NCBI GenBank assembly: GCA_000004695.1
Contig: CM000152.2
Coordinates: forward strand, 3,072,001 to 3,136,000
Direction of reading: 5' to 3'
Source: Dictyostelium discoideum
Taxonomy: Eukaryota
DNA length: 64,000 nt
Every line of letters starts with the position of its first letter. The stretch's first letter is position 1. Both the position numbers and the translations under genes were made by a program. Below the pieces are notes generated by a model. The model was not told where the DNA came from. It was given only the letters and a program-made list of their open reading frames with translations, and did no database searches. Positions 12,352 through 55,046 of this stretch are shown piece by piece.

Positions 12352-14922
<2,571 letters not shown>

Positions 14923-31536: not shown

Positions 31537-31619
31537 ATTCATTCATTCATTCATTCATTCATTCATTCATTCATTCATTCATTCATTCATTCATTCATTC
31601 ATTCATTCATTCATTCATT
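31537..31619. repeat. (ATTC)~21 tetranucleotide microsatellite.
   Basis: Read directly. It lies at the distal end of the GC-moderate, non-genic block upstream of the tRNA. Confidence 0.95.
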
Positions 31620-31911
31620 ATCTATTGATAACTAGATCTGATAAAAAAAAATCTTAATAAAATAATAGTTTTGATTAAAAACCTTTTTTATTTTATTTTT
31701 TTTTTTCTACATTGGACACTTAAATAAATTCGTATTTTTATTTTATTTTATATATAAAAATTAATTAATTTTGTAATAAAAAGAATTATTTAGTTTGAAG
31801 ATAATTTTTTTTTTTTTTTTTTTTTTTACCAAAATTTAATAAATAAACTAACTTTTTGTTTTTTTTTTTTTTTAAAAATTTTTTAATAAAGATTTTTTTT
31901 TTTTTTTTTTT

Positions 31912-33144
31912 TTATTGTTGAGCACAAGAAACACCTTGTGGATGACCACCATGTTGATCTTCATCATCGTCATCGTAAGCAGAGGATCTACTATGTGAAT
32001 GTTGTTTAGTATCGAAATCATGTAAAACGGCCTCTTCATCGATGCCATCGTGGGAAACTGGTTTTTGAACTGGTTTTGGTTTTGGAAGTATTTTCTCCAA
32101 GAGCTTAGCGTTTTCGGGTGTGATTTGACCAGAGGTTGGGAAAACGACATTGAATTTGATAAAGAGTCTACCCTTTTCAAAAGGTCTCTTGTAACCTGGC
32201 ATACCTTCGTTATAAATACATTTGATATCACCTTGTTTGATGATTTGAGTTGGTGGATTCTTTACGGTGATGACACGACCATCCAAATGGGTGATGTAAA
32301 AGGTGAAACCTGTCAAAGCCTCTAAAAGGGTCAACTCATGCTCCATGACGAGATCGTCGCCATCACGTTGGAATACTGGATGCTCCTTTTGAACGAGTAC
32401 AACGATGACGTCACCTGGTACGATATCAGGTGATTCGTAATCACCTTCCTCTGGGAAAACGATCTTTTGACCGTGTTTCATACCCTTGTCAATGTTTACT
32501 TCGAGTGTTTTCTTCTCTTGAATGGTTTTGTTACCTTTACATTTTGGACATCTATCTTTCTCACGGATAACATTGCCCTCACCTTTGCAAGATGGACATT
32601 GTGATTGTAACTTTTGGACCATACCTGGACCGATTTGTCTATGAATAACCTTGAAACCTTGACCATGACAATCGTCACATTTCTTTACACCATCCTTGCT
32701 TGTTGAACCTTTACCTGCGCAATCTGGACATTTGCTACTCTTTTGTAAGGCGAGTTTTTGAACTTTACCCTTGTATAAATCCTCGAGTGTAACTTTAAGA
32801 TTATGTTGGAGTGGTTCTCCTTTTCTTGGTCCACGTCTACCACCACGTCCTCCAAATCCTCCAAATCCACCACCACCAAAGAATTGTGAAAAGATATCAT
32901 CTGGTGAAAATCCTGCTCCACCTTCTTTCAAACCTTCTTCACCATATTTATCATAAAGTTCTCTCTTTTCAGTATCAGATAAAACTTCATATGCAACTGT
33001 AAGTTCTTTAAACTAAATTTTAAAAATAAAAAAAATTAGTAAAATAATAAATAAATATAAATATAATAATAAATATAATATTATTATTATATATATAATG
33101 TGTTGTGGGAATAAATTTGAATTTGAAATTTCAAATTCTAAACT

Positions 33145-33189
<45 letters not shown>

Positions 33190-33333
33190 AAATCTTACTT
33201 TCTCTACTGCAGCTGGATCTGGATTCTTATCTGGATGATATTTAATTGCTAATTTACGGTATGCCTTTTTAATATCAGTTTCTGATGCATCACGTGCAAC
33301 TCCTAAAATATCATAAAATTTATTATCGGGCAT
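31912..33333 (-). CDS. DnaJ/Hsp40 type I (DNAJA/Ydj1-like) with a C-terminal CaaX farnesylation box, 411 aa. Exons: 33333..33199, 33012..31912.
   Basis: The J domain has HPD ([45 protein letters not shown], then GTAAGA..AG, then [24 protein letters not shown]). A G/F-rich linker follows, then four CxxCxGxG zinc-finger repeats ([32 protein letters not shown]), a C-terminal peptide-binding domain, and the terminal CAQQ. Confidence 0.9.
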
Positions 33334-33746
33334 TTTGTTTTATGCGCTAATGTATATTTATATAAATGTTGTTGAAAATAAAAAAATATGAAAAACCCTA
33401 TAATTTATTTATTTGTTTTATTTGTGTTTGTTTTAAGAGTTTGTTAGTTTGTGTTTAAACATTTAAATAAAAATAAATAAAATAAAAAATGGTAAAAAAT
33501 TTAAAAAACAAATTAGATAAAAACACACACGGTTTAAAAAACAAAAAAAAACAAATTTAAAAAAAATAAATAAAAAATAAAATTAAAAATTATAAACTAT
33601 TTCTTTTTAGAAATGTAATATAACAATTAATCCTACATACTTTGTTTTAATTAATTTTAAAAAAAAAAAAAAAAAAATTATATATATATAAATATCCTTA
33701 AAAGAAAAAAAAAAAAAAAAAAAAAAATGAAAAAAAAATTAAAGTC

Positions 33747-33782
<36 letters not shown>

Positions 33783-34630
33783 GAAAAAAATTAAATTTTT
33801 GTCGTTATAATTCGTTTTAATTTCACCCAAATTTCATTTTTTTTTCTTTTTTTTTTGTTTTGTTCGTGAAGTTTTAATAACCGAAAACAAAGTTTTAAGG
33901 AATATAGTTTTAATTTAAGTTGAAGAAAAAAAATAAAATAAAAATAAAAACCCTCAACTTAATTTCGATTATTTTCATTTTTTTTCTTATTTTAATAACA
34001 GTTTAACTTCCCCAAAAAAAAAAAAAAAAAAAATTAAAAAAAAAAAAAAAAAAAATAAAATGAATTTTTTTTTTTTTTGCAAAAACTCCTTAAATACCGA
34101 AGTTCGATTTAATATATTCAGTTATTTAAATTATTTTAATTTTAATTTTAATTTTTATAAAAATAAAATAAAATGAAATAAAGAAAATCTTAACAAACGA
34201 ACTTTTTTTTTTTTTTTTTTCCTAAAAATATTTGGAAAAATATAATTATATAAAAAATTTTTATACATATGTATTGTCAGTCCATAAATTATTTATTTTT
34301 TTATATTTTTCCAAATATGTTTAAAAAAAAAAAAAAAAAATGATACAACAATAATTTTTTTTTTTTTTTGTTATTTTTTAATTTTATTTCCAAAGGAATC
34401 TTGGTTTGATAAACATTTTATTTATTTTTTTTTGGATATTTTTTTTTATTTATTTTATGTTTTTTATTATTTTATATTTTTTTTTTTATATTTTTACTAT
34501 TATATATTGTAAATATAGATAGATATATGTACATTGTAATATTATTTTTATTATTATTATTATTATTTGGATTATTATAATTTTGAGAATAAAAAAGACA
34601 GATAATAATTAAAATTTTAATATATTATTA

Positions 34631-34725
34631 TTAAAACATTAATTCATCATCTTCATCTAAAATTTGTTCTTGTTGTCGTTCTTCTTGTTGTTCACCTTCT
34701 TGTTGTTCTTGTTGTTCTTTAATTA

Positions 34726-34756
<31 letters not shown>

Positions 34757-35033
34757 TCTTGGTATATAAGTACTATTATTATTTTCATCGAAATCCAAAA
34801 CATCATCATCAATTAAACTATCATGTACAGAATCTTCCAACCAATTAAAATCTACATCAGCAGTAGTTGATTCTTTTATACTATTTGTAAATGATGAAAC
34901 ACTACTTCTTTTACTATTATTATTACTATTACTATTACTATTGCTATTGCTATTATTGTTGTTGTTATTTTCCAAGTCGTCCAAAGTTAATTCTGTAAAT
35001 AAAAATAAAAATATCAATATTATTAATATCAAT

Positions 35034-35074
<41 letters not shown>

Positions 35075-36361
35075 ATAATTACCTTTTTCATAAAAAGATA
35101 AACCTTTTTTAGCATCTCTTAAATTATTCGAAATTTCATCAGAAATTTCATTAAACGCTAATTTATTATCTTGATTTAAACTAATTTCCAATGACTCTAT
35201 ATCAATTTCATCTACATTATCAGATCGTCTCTTTATGGATGAAGTTGAAGTTGAATTTGCTGTTGTTGTGGTTGTTGTTGTTTTAGTTATTGATTTTGGA
35301 GTTGTAGTTTGTTCATCTGTAGGGTTTGTTTTTGTAATAAATGATTTTTTTGTTGCACTTGATGTTGTTGAGTTTGTAGCTGTAGTTGATGGTGTTTTAG
35401 TTGATGATAAAGTGGCGGAAGAAGAAGAAGATGAAGATGATGATGAAGATTTAGGAGTTGAAGTTAAAGTTGAAGGTCTTTTTAAAGCAGATGTTGTTGT
35501 GGAACCAATTGGTGAAGATGTAGTACTGGATGATATTCTTCTAGTTGGTGTTGTTGAGGTTGTCGTTGTTGAGGTTGAGGTTGTTGTATTAGTAGATGAT
35601 GATAATTTTGAAGGTGTAGGAGTTGAAAGTGGTGAAGATGGAGTTGATTTTGATTTTGTTAAAGTTGGAGCAGGTGGTGTTGGTCCTGGTGGTGAAATTG
35701 GTGATTTAATAATTGGTGGTAATGATCTAGTTAAATTTGAACTTGATGATTGTTTAGATAATGAAGTTGTAATTGCTCTAGTTCCAATACTACTATATCT
35801 ACCAGACTGTGTCGATGTTGCTAAATTTGGACTTGATGATGATGCAGTTTTAGTTATCATTGTTGTTGGTGTTTTTGATATTGGTGATTGTGATGAAGTA
35901 CTCATACCACCACCACCTCCACCACCACTACCACCAGTAATAACATCTTTTCTGGTTGTACCTAAACTTGATTTACTTCTAATTATATTTGATGCATCTA
36001 AAGGTCTTTTTATTGAACTACTAACTTCAGTTCTATTACCTATTGATGAACCTGATCTTAAGCTTGTTGATGATGATGATTGTGTTTTATTTGGTGTAGT
36101 TGTAGTAGTAGTGGTAGTTGTTGTTGTTGGGGTAGTATTTGTTGAAGATCTTATTTTTAAACCAGAAGCTCTACCAGTTGTTGGAGTTTTTGATCTAGTT
36201 GTTGATGTATTATTATTATTATTATTATCATTATTATTATTATTATTATTATCCTTTTTAAAATCATTTAAATCAAAATCTAAATCATTTGAATCTTCAA
36301 CCATTTTTTGATGTTGTTCCTCTTCAAAGAGGGAATTTTTTAATTTTTCACAAAATTCCAA
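34631..36361 (-). CDS. Ser/Thr/Asn-rich low-complexity protein segment of about 576 aa. It is most likely the C-terminal continuation of the TOG/HEAT-like gene immediately upstream, in a different frame.
   Basis: The ORF frame reads sensibly upstream of its first Met (NPLFYTHFTPTTQKNLFTVQEHLKGDQLEFCEKLKN...). It directly abuts the stop of the 36373..37388 gene. See the finding on the frame break near 36441..36453. Confidence 0.5.
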
Positions 36362-36372
36362 TTGATCACCTT

Positions 36373-37388
36373 TTAGATGTTCTTGAACAGTGAAAAGATT
36401 CTTTTGAGTGGTTGGAGTGAAATGAGTGTAGAATAAAGGGTTGCACTCTTTTCATTTAGTTCAGAATAAGCCCAAAAACAATAACGTGCCATTTGACGAG
36501 TTTCACTAGCGCCATCGATTAACAGCTTTTGAATGGATTTCTCCAATGCAGGCACACTGCTAACCAGAATCATACCATCGTTCTCGATGGCCCTGCTTAG
36601 AACTATGTAAATATACTCTGAGCATCTTTTACGTAATTGCTCGTTATGTTGGTCTAATGATGCGTCTAAAAAAGTTTGTAAAAGGTTTTTGGTTGAAACA
36701 CTCTCTAGAATATCTTTCAATGTCTGATGTGCAGATTCAGAGATTATCGTTGTTTTAACAGGTACCATTCTAATTAATGCTTGAGTATATTGTAATGCGA
36801 ATGGTTCAAACTTTGATTTCATTCTAAATCCCAACAAACTAACACTTGCACATGCCTCTTTAACAATGGTTGATCTTAATTCTGTCAATTGTTCAATCAA
36901 TGCTGGTGAAATCGATCTCAACATTGAACTCCACCCTTTAAATTCTATACCATTACCATTTATAATCCTTTGTAAAATTTGTAATGCTTTTAATCTAAAT
37001 GTCCATTCTTTATCTTTATTTCTAAATTCACTAACAATATCATCTAATTTTTTTTGTAATTCTTTTTCATTTTCAAACTAAAATTTTTTAATAATAATAA
37101 AAAAAAAAAATAAAAAAATAAAAAAAAATTTAAATAATAATAATAACATATTAATATTTATATATGTATGTGTGTGTGTATGTGTGTTTTTTATATTTTT
37201 TATTATTTTTTTTTTAAAAATAAAAAAAAACTTACATCTAATGGTGAATTATCAACTTTAGTTTGTGTAAATAATCTTGAACCTACTGTGTTAGTGCTAC
37301 TACCACTACCACTACTACTTGAAGGTGATGATGATGTTGATGTTGAGGAGGATGATGTTGGTACAGTTGATAATCTTGATGTTTTCAT
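36373..37388 (-). CDS. TOG/CLASP-N-like HEAT-repeat domain protein, N-terminal part. Exons: 37388..37236, 37077..36373. It ends at a TAA that may be created by a 1-nt frame break.
   Basis: Exon 1 (MKTSRLSTVPTSSSS...NSPLD) has a GTAAGT donor. Exon 2 (FENEKELQKKLDDIVSEFRNKDKEWTFRLKALQILQRIING...RQMARYCFWAYSELNEK) looks like a TOG-type HEAT array. The family assignment comes from the repeat pattern only. Confidence 0.55.
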
Positions 37389-37408
37389 ATCATTTAAAAT
37401 TACAAATT

Positions 37409-37450
<42 letters not shown>

Positions 37451-37600
37451 TTGTTTAATAAATATAAATATGTGTGGATTTTGTGAAAAAATTTTCAATA
37501 TTTTTTTTTTTTTATTTTCATTTTTTTTTTTTTTTATTTTTTTTTTTTTTTTTTTTGTTCCCAATTTTTCAACCGAAGTCACCATTTACTTTCATTTTTC

Positions 37601-37643
<43 letters not shown>

Positions 37644-37724
37644 TATTTTTATCTTTTTTATTTTTATCTATTTTATTTTTACCTTTTTTTTTATTTTATT
37701 TTTATTTATATTTTTATTTTTATT

Positions 37725-42793
<5,069 letters not shown>

Positions 42794-43386
42794 TATGATG
42801 AGTTGAATTTATTTTTTTAATTTAAAAATGAAAAAAAAAAAAAAAAAAATAAATTAAAAATGAAAAATTATGAAACGAAAAAAAAAAATAAAATAAAAAA
42901 TTAAAAAATTGGGTTTTTTTTTTTGGGTGAATAGAAGATACACATTTTATTTATTTAAATTCTTTACTAAATATGTATAAATTCTATTGGGAGGTTTTTT
43001 TTTTTTTTTTTTTTTTTTAATTTTTTTTATATTATTATTTGTATTATTTTTGTAATTATTGGTGTTATTTCTATTAATATTATTATTATTATTTTTTTTT
43101 TTTTTATTATTTGATTTATTTTTATTATTTTTTTTTTTATTATTTTTATTATTTTTTATTATTTTTTTTATTATTTTTATTTTTTTTATTTTTATTATTT
43201 ATTTTTATTATTGATTTGGAATTATTTATTTATTATATTTATTATTTTTATTATTTTTTAAATCCCTTTCTCATTAAATATTTTTTTTTTTTTTTTTATT
43301 TTTTTTTTTTTTTTTTTTTTTCAAGAAGAAAAAAAAAAATTAGAAAATAAAAAAAAATAAAAATATTTTCCAAATGTTTAATTGAA

Positions 43387-44136
43387 TTATTTTTGGGAAA
43401 TATTTGCAATTAATGATTTTGAATTTAACCAAGGATTATTTTGATTTAAATTCTTTTTTAGCATTTGAGTTGAACAGGTTGAGGCGAGACGTGGGAACTC
43501 TATTTCAGAGAAATTGTAAGGAGTGGTGACAAAGTTGACCAAGGAGGAGCTACATTCATCCATAAGTTCCCAATGTTCTAATTCCTTTTCTCTTTCATCT
43601 GGTTGTTCATTGAAAACGACAAAGTCGTTTTCAATGTCATCATTTGGATTCTTTACAATGACGACATCTGTTTGTTTTAGACTCAATTCGATGGCCTTTT
43701 GGATGTCGGAATTCTCTCTAGCATTGGCATTGGTGAAACGAAGTTCATGTTGGAATACACCATTTGGACCGAGTTTGACACAGAACGAGGTTTCGTAGGT
43801 TGGTTCATCAACATCATAATCTTGTGGTTCTGGGAATAAAGATTTCTTATCTTTATCCTCGCCATAAATTAATGGTGGACGATTTGTTTTTATATTGTTG
43901 TTGTTGTTGTTATTATTATTGATACTATTTGTTTGTGGTGGAGCATTGGCTAAACGAATTAAAGTAAGTCTATGCTTTTCTTCTTGTTCCTTCAACTTTT
44001 TTTGATCCTCCAACTTTTTAATTTCAAGTTTTTTTAATTTGTCAACTTTAAGGATTTCTTTTTGTTTTCTAATATTTACATCTTTTTTGTTTCTATTTCT
44101 ACAGTCGAGGCCAAATCTTGGTGGTGTTGATTCCAT
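43387..44136 (-). CDS. Hypothetical protein, 249 aa, with a ubiquitin-interacting motif (ENSDIQKAIELSLKQ) and a Lys/Glu-rich coiled N-terminus.
   Basis: A single ORF with an ATG at 44136 after AT-rich upstream sequence. The UIM consensus (acidic residues, then A-I-x-L-S) is seen directly. No other recognisable domain. Confidence 0.55.
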   Translation of the reverse strand: MESTPPRFGLDCRNRNKKDVNIRKQKEILKVDKLKKLEIKKLEDQKKLKEQEEKHRLTLIRLANAPPQTNSINNNNNNNNNIKTNRPPLIYGEDKDKKSLFPEPQDYDVDEPTYETSFCVKLGPNGVFQHELRFTNANARENSDIQKAIELSLKQTDVVIVKNPNDDIENDFVVFNEQPDEREKELEHWELMDECSSSLVNFVTTPYNFSEIEFPRLASTCSTQMLKKNLNQNNPWLNSKSLIANISQK

Positions 44137-44685
44137 TTTTTTAATATTATATATATATATATTATACTTTTGATAAGGTTTGGTAGATAATTTATATAAA
44201 AAAAAAATAAAAAAAATAAAAAATTAAATTTAATAAATAATTATATAATTTATATATTATCTATTTAAAAGAATGAAAAGGAAAATTTATTTTATACAAG
44301 AAAAAATTTTTTAAAAAAAAAATTATTTATTATTTTTAATAAAAAAAGACAAAAAGAGTATAAAAAAAATATTTGGAAAAAATTATTATTATTTAAAAAA
44401 AAAATTATTATTATTTAAAAAAAAAAGAGGATATTATTATTATATTTACAAAAATGAAAAGAAAAAAAAACAAAAAATAAAATAAAAAGGTTTATATAAT
44501 TAAAAAAAAATAAAAAATAAAAAAAAAAAAAATAAAAAAAAATAAAAAAAAACAAAAAAAAATAAAAAAAAATAAATATTTAAAAAAAAAAAAAATTAAA
44601 TTATTATAAAATTATTTTGATGACAAATGGATAATTTAATATGGGAAATATAAAATAAAATGGGTTTTGTATATATATGTATATA

Positions 44686-44718
<33 letters not shown>

Positions 44719-44760
44719 ATTATTTAAATTTATGATAAATAAAGATAATTGTGGTGAGGT

Positions 44761-44809
<49 letters not shown>

Positions 44810-45746
44810 GGTTAGATTATGTGGACTGAGAATTTGAGAAAAAATAAATAAATAAAATAAAAAAAAAAAAAAGAAAAAAAATAAAATAAAATATAAAAAA
44901 AATGTTAATATTTAAATTTCAAAAAATTGATATTATTTAAATTTTTAAATTTCCAACAAAACAAAAAAATAATGTTGTGATGATAGTCATTTTTTTTTTT
45001 TTTTTTTTTTTTTGGAATCTAATAAACCCTCCAAAATTTTTTTATTCGTTATACATGTAGAGAGATGGGTAAAAAGAAAAAAAATATTTAAATAAAACCA
45101 CCACCAATATATTACACTAGATACCCAAATTTCCCCATGTGTTAATTTGTTTACAGATAAAAAATATTTTTTAAAAAATGTCAATTTATTATTTTTTATT
45201 CTTAAAAAACTACCACTCTTATAATACACACACATACATAAAATACAATACATGTAAGCTTGGTAAAATATTCTATTTTTTTTTTTTTTTTTTTTTTTTC
45301 CAATTTTTTTTTTTTAATTTTTTGGTTTTAATTAATTAAAAATTATTATTATTATTATAATAAAGAAATTACCACTTTTATATATTACAACAGAGAATTC
45401 TCTTACCGTATCTATTTTATTATAATAATGGTTTTTTATTTTAATTTATTTTTTATTTATTTTTTATTTTTGTTTTTTTTTGTTTTTTTTGAATGGATTT
45501 GGGGGTAATTTAAAATAGTAATGAAATAATAAAAATAATAAAAATAATAAAAATAATAATAAAAATAATAAAAAAATTAAATGAAATGAAACATTCATAA
45601 TAAATGAAGTAAAAAATAATTTAAATTAACAAAAATTAACAAATTTATCAGTTGCATATGAAATTAAAATAAATTATTATTATTATATGAATAAAAAAAA
45701 TATTTGGAAAAAGAAAATAATTGTGTTTTATAATTTTATAATTTAA

Positions 45747-45788
<42 letters not shown>

Positions 45789-46608
45789 AAAGTTAGAAAA
45801 TATGGAATAATATTAATATTTTAATCACTTACCAATTGCTATTGAATCCAAAAGGAAATGGTTTTTTTTTAAAAAAATATAAAAAAAAGGGAAATACAAG
45901 TTAAATTTTTTTAAAAAAAATATAAAAAAAAGATATATACAAATAAATACAGAAAAAAGAAAAAAAAAAAAATTAAAAAAAGATAAAAAAGAAAAAGAAG
46001 GAAAAAAAAAATAAAAAAAAAATAAAAAAAAAATAAAAATAAAAAAATAAAAAAAGGTTAAAAAAAAGTTAAAAAATTAAATATATAAAAAAAACAAAGA
46101 TTGAAATAAATTGGTGATTAGATTAGGATGATGAGTGATTGTTAAAATGAAAAAAAAAAAAAAAAAAAAAAAAAAATGAAAAAAATTAAAACAATATTAT
46201 TAAGAAAAAATTAATAAAATTTAATTAAATTTATGATCATTTTTTTTAATTTTTTTTTTTATTAAAAAAAAAAAAAAAAAAAACCACTTGATATCTCACA
46301 AAAATGAGAGCACTGCAAATTTTTAATAAAAAATACATTTAATAACCCAGTCAAAAAATTAAAATTAAAAAAAAAAAAAATATTCAAAAATAAAAAATTA
46401 ATAAAAATAATAAATATAATATGACATCCAACTGTCTTGATTTTTTTTAATTTTAATTTTTTGAATTTTTTTTTTTTTTTTTTTTGAATTTTTTTTTTTT
46501 TTTTTTTTGATTTATTAAAATTAAATTGTAATTTACAATAAAACAAATTTTTTGTGTGTGTTTTTTTTTTTTTTTTTATATCTTTAATAAATATTGAGAG
46601 ATATTGAT

Positions 46609-46630
46609 AGAGAGAGAGAGAGAGAGAGAG
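46609..46630. repeat. (AG)11 dinucleotide repeat in the 5' leader immediately upstream of the ATG at 46643.
   Basis: Read directly. Confidence 0.95.
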
Positions 46631-46642
46631 AAAATATAAAAT

Positions 46643-47911
46643 ATGGGAAATGTAGAATCGCTTTCAAATTCAATTTCTGAGGAATATCATAGGGTAGATG
46701 CTACAAACAGAGGATATTTGGTATGTTAATGATTTATAATTCGCAATCCAATAAAAAAAAAAAAGTGGTGTATACAAAATCATTTTAATGTTGTAAATAA
46801 AAAAAAAACAAATACAAATATATATATTATTTAATAAATACCTTTAACACTTTCAAAATTTTACAAGAAATTTTCAACTTATCAAAAAATTGATATACCC
46901 CCACACACTCACACACTCACACACCACATACACACACTTTCCAAAAAATAAATTTCATTTTTAATCACTTATTTCCTAATCTCATATATTTTTACTTTTT
47001 GGAATACAAATTTACCAAACTACTTTTTTGTTTTCTTTGATAACTTAGTATGAAAGTTTAATTATAGAATCTACTGTCTATCTGGCATTCAAAAAAAAAA
47101 AAAAAAAAAAAAATAATAATAAATAATAAAAATAATAAAATTAAAACATTAAAAAAATTACATAATGACAACACTTTTATAAAATTCTATATTTAAAATA
47201 ATCTATTTTTAAGTTTTTTACATTTATTGACTTTTTTTTTTTTTTTTTCTATTATCATAATAATTCTTTTTTTTTTTTTTAATTTATTTGAAATTTTATT
47301 ATTAATAATTATTACCTTTTTTTTTATTATTATTATTATTAATTATAATGATTTATAAAAGTTATTGGATGAATTATTACAAATGCAACCACCTAGAGAG
47401 AGTACGATTGATATATGTCATCTTGGTACATTATTTGTAATTGATAAAAGAAGGACAGGTAGATTCTATCATAATGATATACTTGAATTTGCAAGGACCT
47501 ATGCATCACAGGCTTTATTAAATGGTAGGAAAGATGATTTTCAATCAAAATTTCAGGCTTATTGTACTTTAAAAATGTGGAACGAGATTTCAAAAGATAG
47601 AGATGAAATATTTGTTGAATGGTTTGTTGTTTTTTTTTTTTTTTGATTTTTTTTTTTTTTATTATTGATATTATTAATATTAACATTTTGTTTGAAAGGT
47701 TTACAAAACTATTCACAGAGAATCCAAACTATATACAAAAATTTGATCAACATAGTGAAACTTATTTAACAAGTGATGCTATAAATAAAATGTATCAGGT
47801 AATTATTATTATTATCATTATTATTAATTATTATTTTATTATAATTATCTTTTTGATTTTTATTTTTGTGATTATTTAAGGAGATAGGGGTTAGATTTTA
47901 TTGTGGGATGG

Positions 47912-47980
<69 letters not shown>

Positions 47981-48237
47981 TTATTTTTTTTTTTTTTTTT
48001 CGAGAAATCTTTTTAAATATTAAAGAAAACTAATTTTTAAAACCACAACACATTTAGATATTATCAATTAAAAATTATTATGGGGGTGATTTTAGAAGTT
48101 TTCTAGATTTAATGCAAAGATCTGCAGAGGAAGAAGATTTAATGAAATTAGATGAAGATGAATTGGACGATGTAGTACCAGCTCAAATTTTAAAAAACTT
48201 TTCAAAACATTTTATTGATGGTTTTAAAAAATTAATG
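46643..48237 (+). CDS. N-myristoylated (MGNVES...) multi-exon protein, possibly with degenerate EF-hands. Exons approximately 46643..46720, 47362..47621, 47699..47798, then about 48096..48237 or beyond. The 3' end is unresolved.
   Basis: MGNVESLSNS fits the N-myristoylation consensus. Exon 1 ends at a GTATGT donor and a 641-nt first intron follows. Exon 2 reads LLDELLQMQPPRESTIDICHLGTLFVIDKRRTGRFYHNDILEFARTYASQALLNGRKDDFQSKFQAYCTLKMWNEISKDRDEIFVEW. It joins in phase 2 through GTTTGT..AG to FTKLFTENPNYIQKFDQHSETYLTSDAINKMYQ, which ends at GTAATT. The next coding block is SFLDLMQRSAEEEDLMKLDEDELDDVVPAQILKNFSKHFIDGFKKLM. None of its candidate acceptors (48095, 48106, 48119) is in phase with the GTAATT donor. 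Confidence 0.4.
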
Positions 48238-49268
48238 GTAAGCAAATTATTTAATTTTATTTCTGTTAATAATTTAATTTTTTTTTTTTTTTTTTTTATT
48301 TTATTTTATTTTATTAATATTATTTTGGGTAAAAAAAAAAAAAAAATCTATTTAAATTTGTATATATATTGATAAAATATTTATATATCTCATTCTTTTA
48401 AAATAATATTATTTTCTAAATCTTATTCTAATTCTAAAAAAAAAAAAAAATAAAAAAATGAATTTCTAGTCTGAACTTGGTTTCCAACCAGATTTACTTT
48501 CAAATGTTCAATAGAATATGAAAAAACTAGTTTTTCTATTTTTTTATAAAAAAAAAAAAAAAAAATTTGTAAATAATAATAAAAGATAGTTAACAATTAT
48601 GTATCAATTTTTTTTTTTTTTTAAAATTTCATATAATTTTTATTCATTTTTTTTTTTTTTTATTTTATTTTTTAAATTTCATACTTGATGTGAAATTAAT
48701 TCAATTTAGAATCACAAATGGTTAAAATAAATATTGTGAAAAAGGAAAAAAAATAAAAAATAAAAAAAAAAATAAAAAATAAATGTGGTAAAAAATATTT
48801 ACTAAAGTTTCAATTAAAAATGTTCAAATTATCCTATCCAATTAACATAAAAACTATATTGTGTGGTAAATAAATTTTAAAAGGAAAGTTGTCTAAAAAA
48901 AAAAAAAAAAAAAAATAATTAAATTTTGTTGTGGTATGGGGTAAATTCGATTTATTGAAAAAAAAATAATAGCTAATTAGTAAAATTCCTCAATTCATTA
49001 TTTACTCTTTAGCTATGGTGTGTTTCCGATAAATTATGGAAATTCATAATAAAAAAAAAAAAAAAAAAAAAATATTGGTGTTCTAAATAATTACTATTTA
49101 AAATAAAAATTATCATAATTCTAAATATCAATTATTAAAATAATAATAATTATCAATTATAATAATAATAATAATTTAATATTTATTTAAAAAAAACAAA
49201 AAAACAAAAAATAAAAATTTATATTTTATTTTTTTTATATTTAAATACTTTTCAATACATATAACAAA

Positions 49269-50626
49269 ATGAGCATTAATTGGTTAACTCACCCATTTGA
49301 AGAATTAAGTAATTTAAAACATTCTTTGGATGAAACTTTAAAAAATTGGACTGAACCAGCACCAACTGCTGCAACATCAATGGATTGGGGTTGGAAGCCA
49401 AGAATGGATGTTTGTGAAAACAAGGATTATTACAAAATCATCTTGGAATTACCATCGTTCAACAAGGATGAAATTGAAGTCCAAGTAAATGGTCGTTTCT
49501 TATCCATCAAAGGTCAAAAAATTGAACATACCACTGATGAATGGAAATATCATAGAAGAGAAAGATATTCTGGTGGTGAATTCCATCGTGCAGTTGCACT
49601 TCCAGAAGGTAATTTTAATATTATTTTTTAAATATATATTTAATAAATCTAATAATAATAAAAACTAACTTTTTTTTTTTTTTTTTTTCTTTCTTTCTTT
49701 CTTTCTATTTTTTAGGTATTGATGGTTCATCAATTCAAGCAAAATTCCAAAGTGGAGTTTTATTATTATTAATTCCAAAGACTGGAGGTAAAACTAGTCA
49801 ACATATTTCATTATTTGGTCGTGAAGAACATGGTAATAAAAGAAATGTAATTGATTTAGAAGAGAAAGAAAGAAAAAGAAGAATGGAAGAATCAGATCCA
49901 ATGTTAGGTCGTCGTTGGGGTACTGGTCGTTCATTGTTTAGTGGTTCAAAATTGAATAATCAAAATGATACCATGTATCGTAAACCAAGTGCATCTGATT
50001 TAAGATTAGTTAAACAGATGGAAACTAAAGAACGTGAAAGAAGAATTAGAGATACCAAAGGTGAAACTGAAAAGAAGAAGAACGCACTCAAAGTCAGTCG
50101 TTACATTAAATCACTTGGTATGAATCCAAGATCAACCTTGAGAAGAGGTGGTCGTGAAATGGAAAAGATTATTCATCTTGAAGAACGTGAACGTCAAGCA
50201 AGAATCAGAGACAAAGGTAGAATGAGACAACAACAAGCTCTCGCTAAAAAAGTTTCCAATTTAATTAAACACTCTGGTGGAGCTGCTAGACTTCGTCATA
50301 CCGGTTTCAACTATTCTACCATTACTAAAGGTTACAATACCAACAAGACCAAATTTGATCGTTTCGGTAAAGAAAATGACTCCTTTGGTGGTTTCAACAT
50401 TAACAAATCATTCACCAACCAATTCAAAGGATTTGGAAAGAATAGTGGTGGTAAATCAATAAACATTACCACTGGTGGTTTCAAAGCTCCATCTCAATTC
50501 AACAAATTCACTCACAACTTGGAAGAAAAAGAACGTCAAAGAAGATTAAATGATAAAAAAGGTCAAAATGATGCTAAACGTTTAGCTGCTGAAATCTCTC
50601 ATATGATTGGTAATGCTCATTTTTAA
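49269..50626 (+). CDS. Small heat-shock protein (Hsp20/alpha-crystallin family) with a long basic C-terminal extension, 416 aa. Exons: 49269..49608, 49716..50626.
   Basis: Alpha-crystallin domain: WKPRMDVCENKDYYKIILELPSFNKDEIEVQVNGRFLSIKG...GEFHRAVALPEG, then a GTAATT..AG intron in phase 1, then IDGSSIQAKFQSGVLLLLIPK. The about 250 aa tail contains three copies of an EKERxRRIRD/NDKKG-like motif. Confidence 0.85.
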
Positions 50627-50880
50627 AAATTTTTTCATTAATTGATTAAAAAAGGTTAAATAACTATTTACTTTTTCAAATTCATACATATTTTCATACA
50701 AACAATAATTCTCGAATTTGAGGATTTTAATATTTTCTTAAATATTTAAATAAAAATTTATATATTTATTAATTAAAAAAATGAGTGAGAGATAATGGTG
50801 ATGTATATTTTTAGTGTTATTAAAGTGTATTTTTTTTTTTTTTTGATGGTTGGGATGAGATATGGTTTTTTTTATTTTTT

Positions 50881-51051
50881 TTATGCAGCAATACGATCTT
50901 TTCCACCTTGTTTTACAAAGACAACAGTTTCTTTTGGATTCCATCTTGATAATTCATTTGATGATTGATTGACTAAGCCATTGTAATTATTAAAATTAAA
51001 ATCATTTGATTTATTTGATTTAAAAGAAATATTAAATGATGATAAAGATCC

Positions 51052-51095
<44 letters not shown>

Positions 51096-51172
51096 TTTTT
51101 TTTTTTAATAAAATTAATATCTTTAAAGTTTTTTTTTTTTAAAAAATATATATACTTACTAAAAATGGACAT
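50881..51172 (-). CDS. Small two-exon ORF, about 60 aa (MSIF-R-SLSSFNISFKSNKSNDFNFNNYNGLVNQSSNELSRWNPKETVVFVKQGGKDRIAA). Exons: 51172..51160, 51050..50881.
   Basis: The ATG is followed after 13 nt by a perfect GTAAGT donor. A roughly 110-nt A/T intron ends ...ATAG, and the downstream exon is in frame to a TAA. ATG-proximal introns like this are common in Dictyostelium. No homologue recognised. Confidence 0.35.
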
Positions 51173-52644
51173 TCTTCCTTTAATTAATTATTGTAATGGA
51201 TTGAAACAATTGTAATTTATTTAATTAATGAAATTATTGTAAAAGAATTAAGTTTATTTATACTGATTTTTTTATTTTTTTTTTTTTTTTATTTAAAAAA
51301 AATTAATTTTTATTAATATTAAACTGATAATAAAAATAATGGAAATAAAAAAAATAATAACGAAAAGAATAATAATACCAATATTAAGTTAATTATTATT
51401 ATTAATATTTTATTTTTTTAAACTCAATGAGTAGATTTTTTTTTTTTTTTTTTAAAAAAATACCATAAAAAATTTTAACCAAATTAAATATTGTTACATA
51501 CCTAATCTCTCTTATTAAAATACATAAATGGAATTGTTTAATTATTAATTAAAATAAATAAAAAAAAAAGACTTGCTAAAAAATTAATTTTAATTTTTGC
51601 CCCTAAATAACCTCATCATTTCACAAAAATAGTTAAAACTATCAATTTAAAACAGTTTAAAATAATTTTCAAAACCCAATTGACAAATGATAATTTTAAA
51701 ATAATATTAAAATAAAACCAAAGATATTTAATTTTTTTTTTTTTTAAAAAAAAAAAGAAAACATTAAATAAATTATTCATTAATGTATTAATATATGTAT
51801 ATGTTTGGTCCTTATTAATTTAAAAGACAAAAATAAAACAAAAATTTCATCGGCATTATAAAAAAAAAAAAAAAAAACTTCGGCATTCAATCAAAAACCC
51901 AATCGAGATTTTGATTTATTGATTGGAATTATATATCTTTCATTATTTATTTTTTTTTTTTTTCTGCTTTTTTTTTTAATTTATCATAAAAAAAAAAATA
52001 CTGAAAAAAAATATAAAAAATATAAAAAATATATATAGAATATTATTCACACACCATTACCACCCAATGCAATTAAATAGATTATTTTTTATTTAATTTT
52101 ATTTATTTATTTTTTTTTTTTTAAAAATATTTTTATTGTTTTCAACGCCATCGATGGTGAATAATTAATTTTAAAATTATATAAAAAAAAAAAAATTTAT
52201 ATATTAAACCAATATAAATAAACATATACATTTAAAAAGAAATTTATTTGTTTTTGGTTTATTTTTTTTATTTATTTTTTTTTTTTACTTGAAATTATTA
52301 TTTATTAATAATATTTTGAATATGATTTTTAAAAAATTATCTCCTTACTAGAATATTTTCGAGAATAAATAGTGCGAAGAAATATAAATTAAAAAACCAA
52401 ATTAATCATCAACCATAAAATGAAAAATGAAAAATACAAATCAATACTAATATTTTTAAAAAAGAAAAAAAAGATAAAAAAGAAAAAAAAGAAAAAAAGA
52501 AAAAAATAAAAAAAAAAAAAATGAATGATTATTATTATTATTTATTTTTTAATTATTTTATTAGTTGAAAAAAATAAAAAAAAAAAATAAAAGAAATTTA
52601 TTATTACTATTTTTTAATTATTATTATTATTATTTTTATTTTAT

Positions 52645-55046
52645 TTAAAGTTCGTCATGGGTTGATTGTGGTGGTTGTTGGAAATCTTGTTGTTGATTTT
52701 CATCATCATCACCAAATGAAACTGATGGACCAGAATTTTCATTTTTAGTGGTTTCGAAATTAGTTTGAGCTAAACTATCACCATTAATCATCATTAATTT
52801 GTAAATGAAATCGGCAAAGTTTGTTGGATTATCAATGGAATAACCAGCGGTAAGAGCAGAAGTTTCATATAAAACATGAGCGCTAACTTTGGTAGTTTCA
52901 TCTTCTTCACCAAATTCATTCAATCTATTCAAGAGTTTTTTAATGAGTGGATGGGAAGGATTAATTTCCATGATTTTCTTTGAATTGAATTGTGGTTGAG
53001 CGTTTGCTTGATGAGCTTGAGCTTTCATGATACGTTCTTGATTGGCAGTGACACCCCAAGAATTTGAGACTAAAATACTTGGTGAATCAGCTAAAACCTT
53101 TGAAATGACGACTTTTTCCAATTTATCAGAGAGAGTCTTTTTGAGGTAAGAAAGGAGTGGTTTGAATTCTTCGGCGGTTTGTTTACGTTGATCCTCTTCC
53201 TCTTTGTCTTCATTGAATTTAACACCACTACGTGCAAGATTAGTGAATTTGTATTTATCGTCAAATTTATCCAATTGTGGTACTAAATACTCATCGATTG
53301 GATCGACTAAGAATAAAACTTCATAACCTTTTTTAATGGCTTGTTCAATGAGTGGTGAAGCTTCTACGGAATCCTTTGATTTACCAGTGATAAAGTAAAT
53401 TTGATCTTGACCCTCTTTCATACGTTCTACATAACCAGCAAAAGTGGTTAACTCTTCCTTACTTGATGGGAATAAGAGGTATTTAGTTAAACGTTTTTTA
53501 TTGGCTTGATCTTCGATGGCACCTAATTTCATTGAAGAACCGAATTTCTTAAAGAATTCATTGTATTTGGTTTTATCTTCATCTTCAGATAACTCTTTAA
53601 TCATTGAAATGAATTTACCAATGACCTTCTTTTTAATGGCATCTAAAATCTTATTTTGTTGTAACATTTCACGAGAAACATTCAATGGTAAATCATCGGA
53701 ATCAATAACACCAACTAAAAATCTTAACCAATTTGGAACCAATTCCTTAAGGTTATCAGTGATGAAAACACGACGTACAAATAATTTAAGACCACTACCG
53801 GCAGCTTCTAAATCAAACATATTTGATGGTGGATTCTCTGGAATGTAAAGAATTGAACGGAATTCAGTATCACCTTCAGTCTTAAAATGTGAATAAGTGA
53901 TTGGTGTATCTTGAGTTTTACTTAATGATCTAAAGAATTCAGTGTATTCTTCTTTGGTAACATCTTTTGCTGCTTTCATCCATAATGGTTTTGAATCATT
54001 TAATTCTTCCCATTTATAAACGGTTTTAGTTTTCTTTTCTTCAGTTTGTCCTTCTTCTTCGGTTGTAGTCTCTTCTTCACCTTCTTCTGTGGTGGTGGTA
54101 GTTTCTTCAACTTGATCATCGGTGATTGGTTTTGAATCTTCTTGTTCTTCTTTTGGAATTTCAACTTCTTCAGAAACGTATAAATAAATTGGGAAATTAA
54201 TGAATTGTGAGTACTTCTTTACGAGTTGTTTAATAACTTCTTGATCTAAGAATTCTTTAGAGTCATCTTTAATGTGAAGACTAATACGAGTACCTCTACC
54301 AAGTGTATTACCTTTTGGATCTTTGGCAATGGTGTATGATGATTGTGAATCTGATGTCCAAACGTATTGATCATCATCATTACTCTTTGAGGTTACAACA
54401 ACAGAATCGGCAACTAAAAATAATGAATAGAAACCAACACCAAATTGACCAATTAAATTGGATGATTCTGCTGAATCACTAACTTTCTTTATGAATTCTT
54501 TAGTTCCTGATTGGGCAATAGTACCTAAATTTCTAACTAATTCATCTTTAGTCATACCAACACCTCTATCAGTAATATGGAGAACATTATTAGCTTTATC
54601 AATTTTAATATGAATATCTAAGTTTGATTGTTCACCTTCACCTAATAAATCTGCATTTGTTAATGCTAAAAATCTAATTTTATCTAATGCCTTTTTTTAG
54701 AAAAAAAAAAAAAATAAATAAATAAAAATAATTAATAATCTTTTTTTTTTTTTTTTTTTTTTTTGTTTAAAAAAAAATTAAAACTTACATCTGATGCATT
54801 TGAAATTAATTCTCTTAAAAAGATTTCTTTTTTAGAATATAAGGAATTAATGATAATATTCATTAATTTATTGACTTCAGTTTGGAAAGTGAATTTTTCA
54901 CCCTTTTCTTCAATTAATTTTGCTTCAGCTTCTGTGTATCCATCACTTTCAAGGTTAACAGTGGCAACACTTGAACTTGGAGCGAATGCAACTAAAAGGA
55001 ATGCAAATAAACCAAGAATTAAAAATATTTTTGTAATACTTTTCAT
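52645..55046 (-). CDS. grp94: GRP94/endoplasmin (ER-resident Hsp90 paralogue), 767 aa, with a C-terminal HDEL. Exons: 55046..54789, 54690..52645.
   Basis: There is a signal peptide ([22 protein letters not shown]). The Hsp90 signature is split by the intron: ...[15 protein letters not shown], then GTAAGT..AG, then [24 protein letters not shown] ATPase motifs ([10 protein letters not shown]), charged linkers and the terminal HDEL are present. Confidence 0.92.

Follow-up and report, generated by a model that had tools for sequence, protein, structure and literature searches.

The window analyzed here is a stretch of 64,000 nucleotides of chromosome 3 of Dictyostelium discoideum AX4 as given in the 2005 Sanger reference. 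Exact look-ups identified neighboring open reading frames (ORFs) of the window as DDB_G0280201, DDB_G0280211, Ddj1, and grp94 of D. discoideum AX4. The gene of interest lies on the minus strand, and its model was built from the window sequence. With one missing base added, the restored gene has three exons and encodes a protein of 836 aa. The features of the locus are listed below.

34631..37388, minus strand: whole gene, DDB_G0280205 merged with DDB_G0280207 (dictyBase)
37236..37388, minus strand: exon 1; ATG at 37388, 51 codons, Ser/Thr-rich leader, GTAAGT donor at 37235
37078..37235, minus strand: intron 1; GT..AG, 158 nt, A+T-rich
36439..37077, minus strand: exon 2 before the break; frame A, residues 52-264, end ...ELNEKSAT
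Between 36439 and 36438, minus strand: the lesion; one A missing (plus strand: T), located by comparison with ten genomes
36373..36438, minus strand: out-of-frame tail and stop of the 285-aa model DDB_G0280207; LYSTLISLQPLKRIFSLFKNI and stop, 21 residues
35083..36438, minus strand: exon 2 after the break; frame B, in which the TOG domain ends and a basic linker rich in Ser/Thr follows
34993..35082, minus strand: intron 2; GT..AG, 90 nt, spliced out in protein models P0033 and P0034
34631..34992, minus strand: exon 3; conserved acidic C-terminus, TAA at 34633..34631
36395..37059, minus strand: CLASP-type TOG domain; Pfam CLASP_N (PF12348), residues 58-279 of the restored protein
34012-34011 (GG vs. 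TT; GGGG vs. GTTG) and 33697 (G vs. T; AAGGAT vs. AATGAT): discrepancies private to the reference; intergenic, between ddj1 and the TOG gene

Upstream of the TOG gene, 37725..41048 (minus strand) is the large last exon of a neighbor encoding a protein of about 1,590 aa, with an Asn run of about 45 residues. At the corresponding locus in the comparison set (L004), this neighbor has the RPAP1_N, RPAP1_C, and TPR_RPAP1 domains, and its product measures 1,533-1,618 aa depending on the strain. A homologue search with this neighbor gave no match, apparently as low-complexity words took up its candidate list.

Translation of the minus strand confirmed that two natural-looking ORFs in different frames meet within exon 2, as a reading made from the sequence only had reported. 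Frame A reads ...RQMARYCFWAYSELNEKSAT LYSTLISLQPLKRIFSLFKNI up to a TAA stop at 36375..36373, and its C-terminal reading is ...ETRQMARYCFWAYSELNEKSATLYSTLISLQPLKRIFSLFKNI. Frame B, which is -1 relative to frame A, is open after the TGA at 36454..36452 and reads KECNPLFYTHFTPTTQKNLFTVQEHLKGDQLEFCEKL...; it continues to 35083, across the 90-nt intron, and on to the final TAA at 34633..34631, about 1.8 kb in all. The two ORFs had been described as abutting within about 12 nt; they overlap by 76 nt (36451..36376). The frame break is not a product of chance: frame B has no stop for about 1.8 kb although the genome is about 78% A+T, and the orthologues share it codon by codon. Intron 2 is itself in frame and stop-free, so that mechanical ORF lists run through all 90 nt.

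The site was compared with ten other Dictyostelium genomes: the laboratory-strain assembly GCA_054883475.1, two wild D. discoideum, two D. cf. discoideum, two D. citrinum, and one each of D. firmibasis, D. dimigraforme, and D. purpureum. In eight of them the same locus was reached through the neighboring Ddj1, and in D. purpureum directly by a search for homologues of the TOG region; this search matched the partial D. purpureum model only and missed the known orthologues of D. discoideum (835/836 aa), D. firmibasis, D. citrinum, and D. dimigraforme, so absence from it is uninformative. The extra base and a single continuous frame, reading ...NEKSATTLFYTHFTPTTQKNLF..., were present in all ten genomes, and the translation across the site was ...NEKSAT(T/A)LFY(TH/Q)FTPTTQKNLFTV... 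in each. At the lesion, the window has GCAACC followed directly by CTTTATTC, whereas the other genomes have GCAACC, then A, then CTTTATTC, or a synonymous or near-synonymous variant. The broken form of the site is thus GCAACCCTTTATTC (k-mer AGAGTGCAACCCTTTATTCTA) and the intact form, with the A, is GCAACCACTTTATTC (k-mer AGAGTGCAACCACTTTATTCT). The codons at the site in nine of the genomes were as follows.

Two wild D. discoideum and two D. cf. discoideum: GCA ACC ACT, then TTA, CTA, or TTG
D. citrinum (two genomes): GCC ACA ACT TTA
D. dimigraforme: GCT ACA ACT TTA
D. firmibasis: GCA ACA ACA CTA
D. purpureum: GCA ACA GCT TTA

The sequence-only reading had proposed one gene with a single-nucleotide shift, caused by an error or a very recent inactivation, and this proposal holds: the ten genomes are continuous, and one A is missing relative to the laboratory-strain assembly. 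The D. purpureum and D. firmibasis orthologues, to which that reading had pointed as the useful comparison, each have one continuous ORF across the site, as do the eight others. The lesion falls within the interval 36373-36460 in which the break had been placed, but 2-3 nt outside the narrower span of 36441..36453 proposed for the shift itself. The residues NP, which had been given for the junction, are an out-of-frame translation, and the actual junction is ...SAT-T-LFY.... The tail formed by LYSTLISLQPLKRIFSLFKNI and its stop in DDB_G0280207 arises artificially when frame A is followed past the lesion; its translation is present in none of the ten orthologues.

The variable columns of the comparison, counted by codon position 1/2/3 in one continuous frame, were 51/31/149 before the site and 14/5/32 after it. 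The third-position excess after the lesion shows that frame B is the selected frame from the first codon past it. This pattern of nucleotide variation indicates purifying selection on the TOG gene throughout the group. The annotated orthologue products of the compared genomes range from 789 to 852 aa.

The frame break falls within the last helix of the TOG domain. Of the 227 positions in the CLASP_N profile, the frame-A product matches 1-208, whereas the restored protein matches 1-226 and scores 109 bits against PF12348 (cut-off 27). Among solved structures, human CLASP1 TOG2 (4k92, E = 2e-14) and CLASP2 TOG2 (3woy) come closest, and the structure alignment spans the break into the last helix (TLFYTHFTPTTQKNL vs. 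TLYNSLEPSYQKSL). The match to CLASP_N and to CLASP1 TOG2 thus takes in the final helix and the ..P..QK.L motif, which spans the break.

A Pfam scan of the 836 aa found no second or third TOG, no C-terminal CLIP-interacting domain, and no further domain. The Dictyostelium protein has a single TOG, whereas CLASPs have an array of two or three TOGs and a C-terminal CLIP-interacting domain. The rest of the protein is a low-complexity, basic, Ser/Thr-rich linker (39 KR vs. 16 DE residues) followed by the acidic tail. The only match to [ST]x[IL]P (SxIP-like) is TYIP at residue 791, in the acidic tail and outside the basic linker. On these sequence features, the product is best described as a single-TOG protein with a CLASP_N domain, and not as a demonstrated CLASP orthologue. 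Antisense to the Ser/Thr-rich linker, on the plus strand, runs an ATG-initiated ORF of 358 aa that is rich in Val, Asp, and Glu (35235..36311); this ORF merely mirrors low-complexity coding sequence and is not a gene.

The protein KAM9949706.1 is encoded by CM142509.1 (GCA_054883475.1, locus L002). Over the whole 2.5-kb coding sequence, the sole difference between CM142509.1 and the window is one extra A, GCAACC[A]CTTTATTC. GCA_054883475.1 is among the ten assemblies made by Holland et al. from Nanopore and Illumina data, in which AX2-214 is the sole laboratory strain (PMC12745789). Its near-identity to the window, together with this published strain list, means that it is almost certainly AX2-214. 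That the error might lie in the AX2 assembly was ruled out, as its base gives the ancestral codon of the nine other genomes.

The comparison with the AX2-type assembly was extended over 22.6 kb (31616..54177), where coding sequence differs by the missing A alone. Nearly all differences are in the lengths of long A/T runs in noncoding DNA. Beyond simple homopolymer length there are about five differences (~2e-4 per base), the missing A included; the other four events are at 34012-11, 33697, 46385, and 45746-44, and most of them lie beside A/T runs. Polarity was checked for the two of these four that fall inside the coverage of the wild-isolate loci, 34012-34011 and 33697. In both, AX2 and wild D. 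discoideum agree with each other and differ from the window, so there are three reference-private discrepancies within 2.8 kb, counting the missing A. The two G-for-T differences are probably further miscalls of the reference, and their proximity suggests that the reference sequence is locally of low quality.

As to the A/T runs, almost all length differences between 31616..54177 and the newer assembly (L002/L011) consist of a shorter run in the latter (about 20 events of 1-13 nt). These could reflect compression of homopolymers in long reads, over-long runs in the Sanger sequence, or real slippage.

These comparisons establish that one base is missing, at which exact point it is missing, that the ORF is intact in all relatives, and that selection acts on the downstream frame. 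We consider that the base was most probably dropped from the 2005 Sanger AX4 reference by an error of base calling or assembly, with a probability of about 0.85. One coding-strand A is absent from the record between 36439 and 36438, inside a single conserved and functional gene, and its absence leads automatic annotation to split that gene into DDB_G0280207 (285 aa, with the 21-residue tail) and DDB_G0280205. The most likely cause is technical, in a part of the reference that is locally poor, and not biology; AX4 cells would then not carry the deficit. The same combination of one missing base, two perfect halves, and intact relatives is found in other single-base indel errors that split genes in Sanger-era references, which likewise have reference-private miscalls nearby; here the context differs in being non-homopolymer. 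Homopolymer runs are the commonest context of indel errors, and the position of the missing base outside any such run speaks against an error. Exact look-ups in the Logan assemblies with the 183-aa frame-A ORF, the frame-B ORFs, and the corrected ORFs, spliced and unspliced, gave no match for either version of the site.

Published data on the laboratory strains bear on how often the reference is wrong. Among 1,917 candidate sites at which AX4 mutation-accumulation lines departed from the reference, 1,916 were common to the lines, and the authors ascribed the shared differences to reference errors or stock differences (Saxer et al., PMC3466296). Base substitutions arise at about 2.5-2.9e-11 per site per generation (literature including PMC3466296), and the identical axeB lesion in Ax2 and AX4 implies a recent common axenic ancestor (PMC4374526). 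With so low a mutation rate and so recent an ancestor, very few real coding indels are to be expected between the two strains, against thousands of errors in the reference. Given also the shared differences reported in PMC3466296, the density of about 2e-4 per base seen here is too high for real divergence. A density beyond real divergence, in a locally weak stretch, makes a reference error the best explanation of the missing base.

A genuine 1-bp deletion, private to the AX3/AX4 laboratory lineage and arising after its split from AX2, would account for the same deficit, but we regard it as improbable. With the deletion, the transcript in AX4 cells would contain a premature stop. At most a fragment of 285 aa could be made, with neither linker nor C-terminus and with a TOG domain short of its last helix, and the allele would in effect be null or hypomorphic. 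A deficit that is confined to the AX4 record while all other genomes are intact is what a very recent mutation would leave, and a downstream frame that is still perfectly intact fits an event only decades old; the non-homopolymer context and the existence of other AX4-private lesions, such as the chromosome 2 duplication, also agree with it. However, only a handful of non-repeat indels would be expected genome-wide from the extremely low mutation rate and the recent AX2/AX4 split, the differences between reference and AX2 (~2e-4 per base) are far too dense to be mostly real, two more reference-private differences lie within 2.8 kb, and the gene is subject to purifying selection across the group. 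If the deletion were real, the most widely used reference strain of D. discoideum would naturally lack the function of a conserved CLASP-like microtubule protein with a single TOG, which AX2 and the wild strains retain; this loss could underlie cytoskeletal differences between AX2 and AX4 and would matter for microtubule work. An old pseudogene was rejected, since there is one lesion only, the 1.8 kb downstream of it is free of stops and matches AX2 exactly, and the splice sites are intact.

Joining of the two frames in vivo, by programmed -1 ribosomal frameshifting or transcriptional slippage, is scarcely credible. Its geometry fits, with frame B at -1 to frame A and an overlap of 76 nt, as at known programmed -1 sites, and there is a heptamer CCCTTTA at 36440 (36434..36440, minus strand). 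This heptamer, however, is phased for frame B and is created by the deletion itself, and frame A has no X_XXY_YYZ heptamer. The downstream RNA is unstructured (MFE -11.6 kcal/mol vs. a shuffle mean of -11.5, z = -0.04), and the break occurs in 0 of 10 relatives, the near-identical laboratory strain included. Thus, unlike known programmed sites, this one has no in-phase heptamer, no stimulatory structure, and no conservation of the arrangement.

The chance that two true genes lie side by side at the locus, or that a single gene has a very small intron spanning the site, is likewise negligible. The original AX4 annotation does give DDB_G0280207 as a separate protein of 285 aa, and the D. purpureum model DICPUDRAFT_20262 stops at ...NEKSAT. 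That model, however, is partial and stop-less, and D. purpureum DNA runs through the site as one ORF; coding is continuous there in all orthologues, and the break lies inside a folded TOG domain. The suggestion of two genes 9 bp apart fails in that no orthologue ends in ...LFKNI and a stop or starts with MEFCEKL. The codon of the proposed second start is TTG (Leu), within ...GDQLEFCEKL.... The earlier view that there is no room for an intron was borne out: the only GT..AG spans of the required length (3n+2) are of 65 and 77 nt, are not intron-like, and would delete conserved codons.

The existing annotation of the two halves agrees with a reference error. Exons 1 and 2, read as far as the TAA, give the frame-A product of 285 aa. 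This product is identical to XP_641306.1 / EAL67330.1, DDB_G0280207 of the 6,357,299-bp AX4 chromosome 3, and its UniProt entry is Q54VP9, "CLASP N-terminal domain-containing protein." Two full-length models, Q54VQ0.2 and KAM9949706.1, share a 90% cluster with it. Q54VQ0.2 (DDB_G0280205) is the same gene as a merged product of 835 aa, with the halves joined at exactly this site; it regains the frame by a 2-nt skip and so has one Thr fewer, with NEKSAT followed directly by LFY and on to ..LFYTHF... KAM9949706.1 (ACTFIT_010928, 836 aa) is the same gene with the actual base and reads ..NEKSATTLFY.., that is, ..NEKSATTLFYTHF... The split gene has already been merged by curators (Q54VQ0.2) and is resolved in the AX2 assembly, while the GenBank/RefSeq AX4 record still has the split 285-aa DDB_G0280207. 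A literature search by gene id for DDB_G0280205 and DDB_G0280207 found no papers. For work on this TOG protein, the correct sequence is the 836-aa KAM9949706.1. The biological weight of the result is small, and its practical value is one of housekeeping, as it concerns the truncated XP_641306.1 / Q54VP9, the missing Thr, and the end of DICPUDRAFT_20262.

The latter model (L001, 10001..10828) has 250 aa and ends in ...ELNEKSAT, which coincides exactly with the point where the AX4 protein leaves its frame. Past this end, a single ORF with one intron extends through the D. purpureum DNA as far as a TAA near 12460 (L001). The homology-based annotation of D. purpureum seems to have inherited the AX4 artefact.
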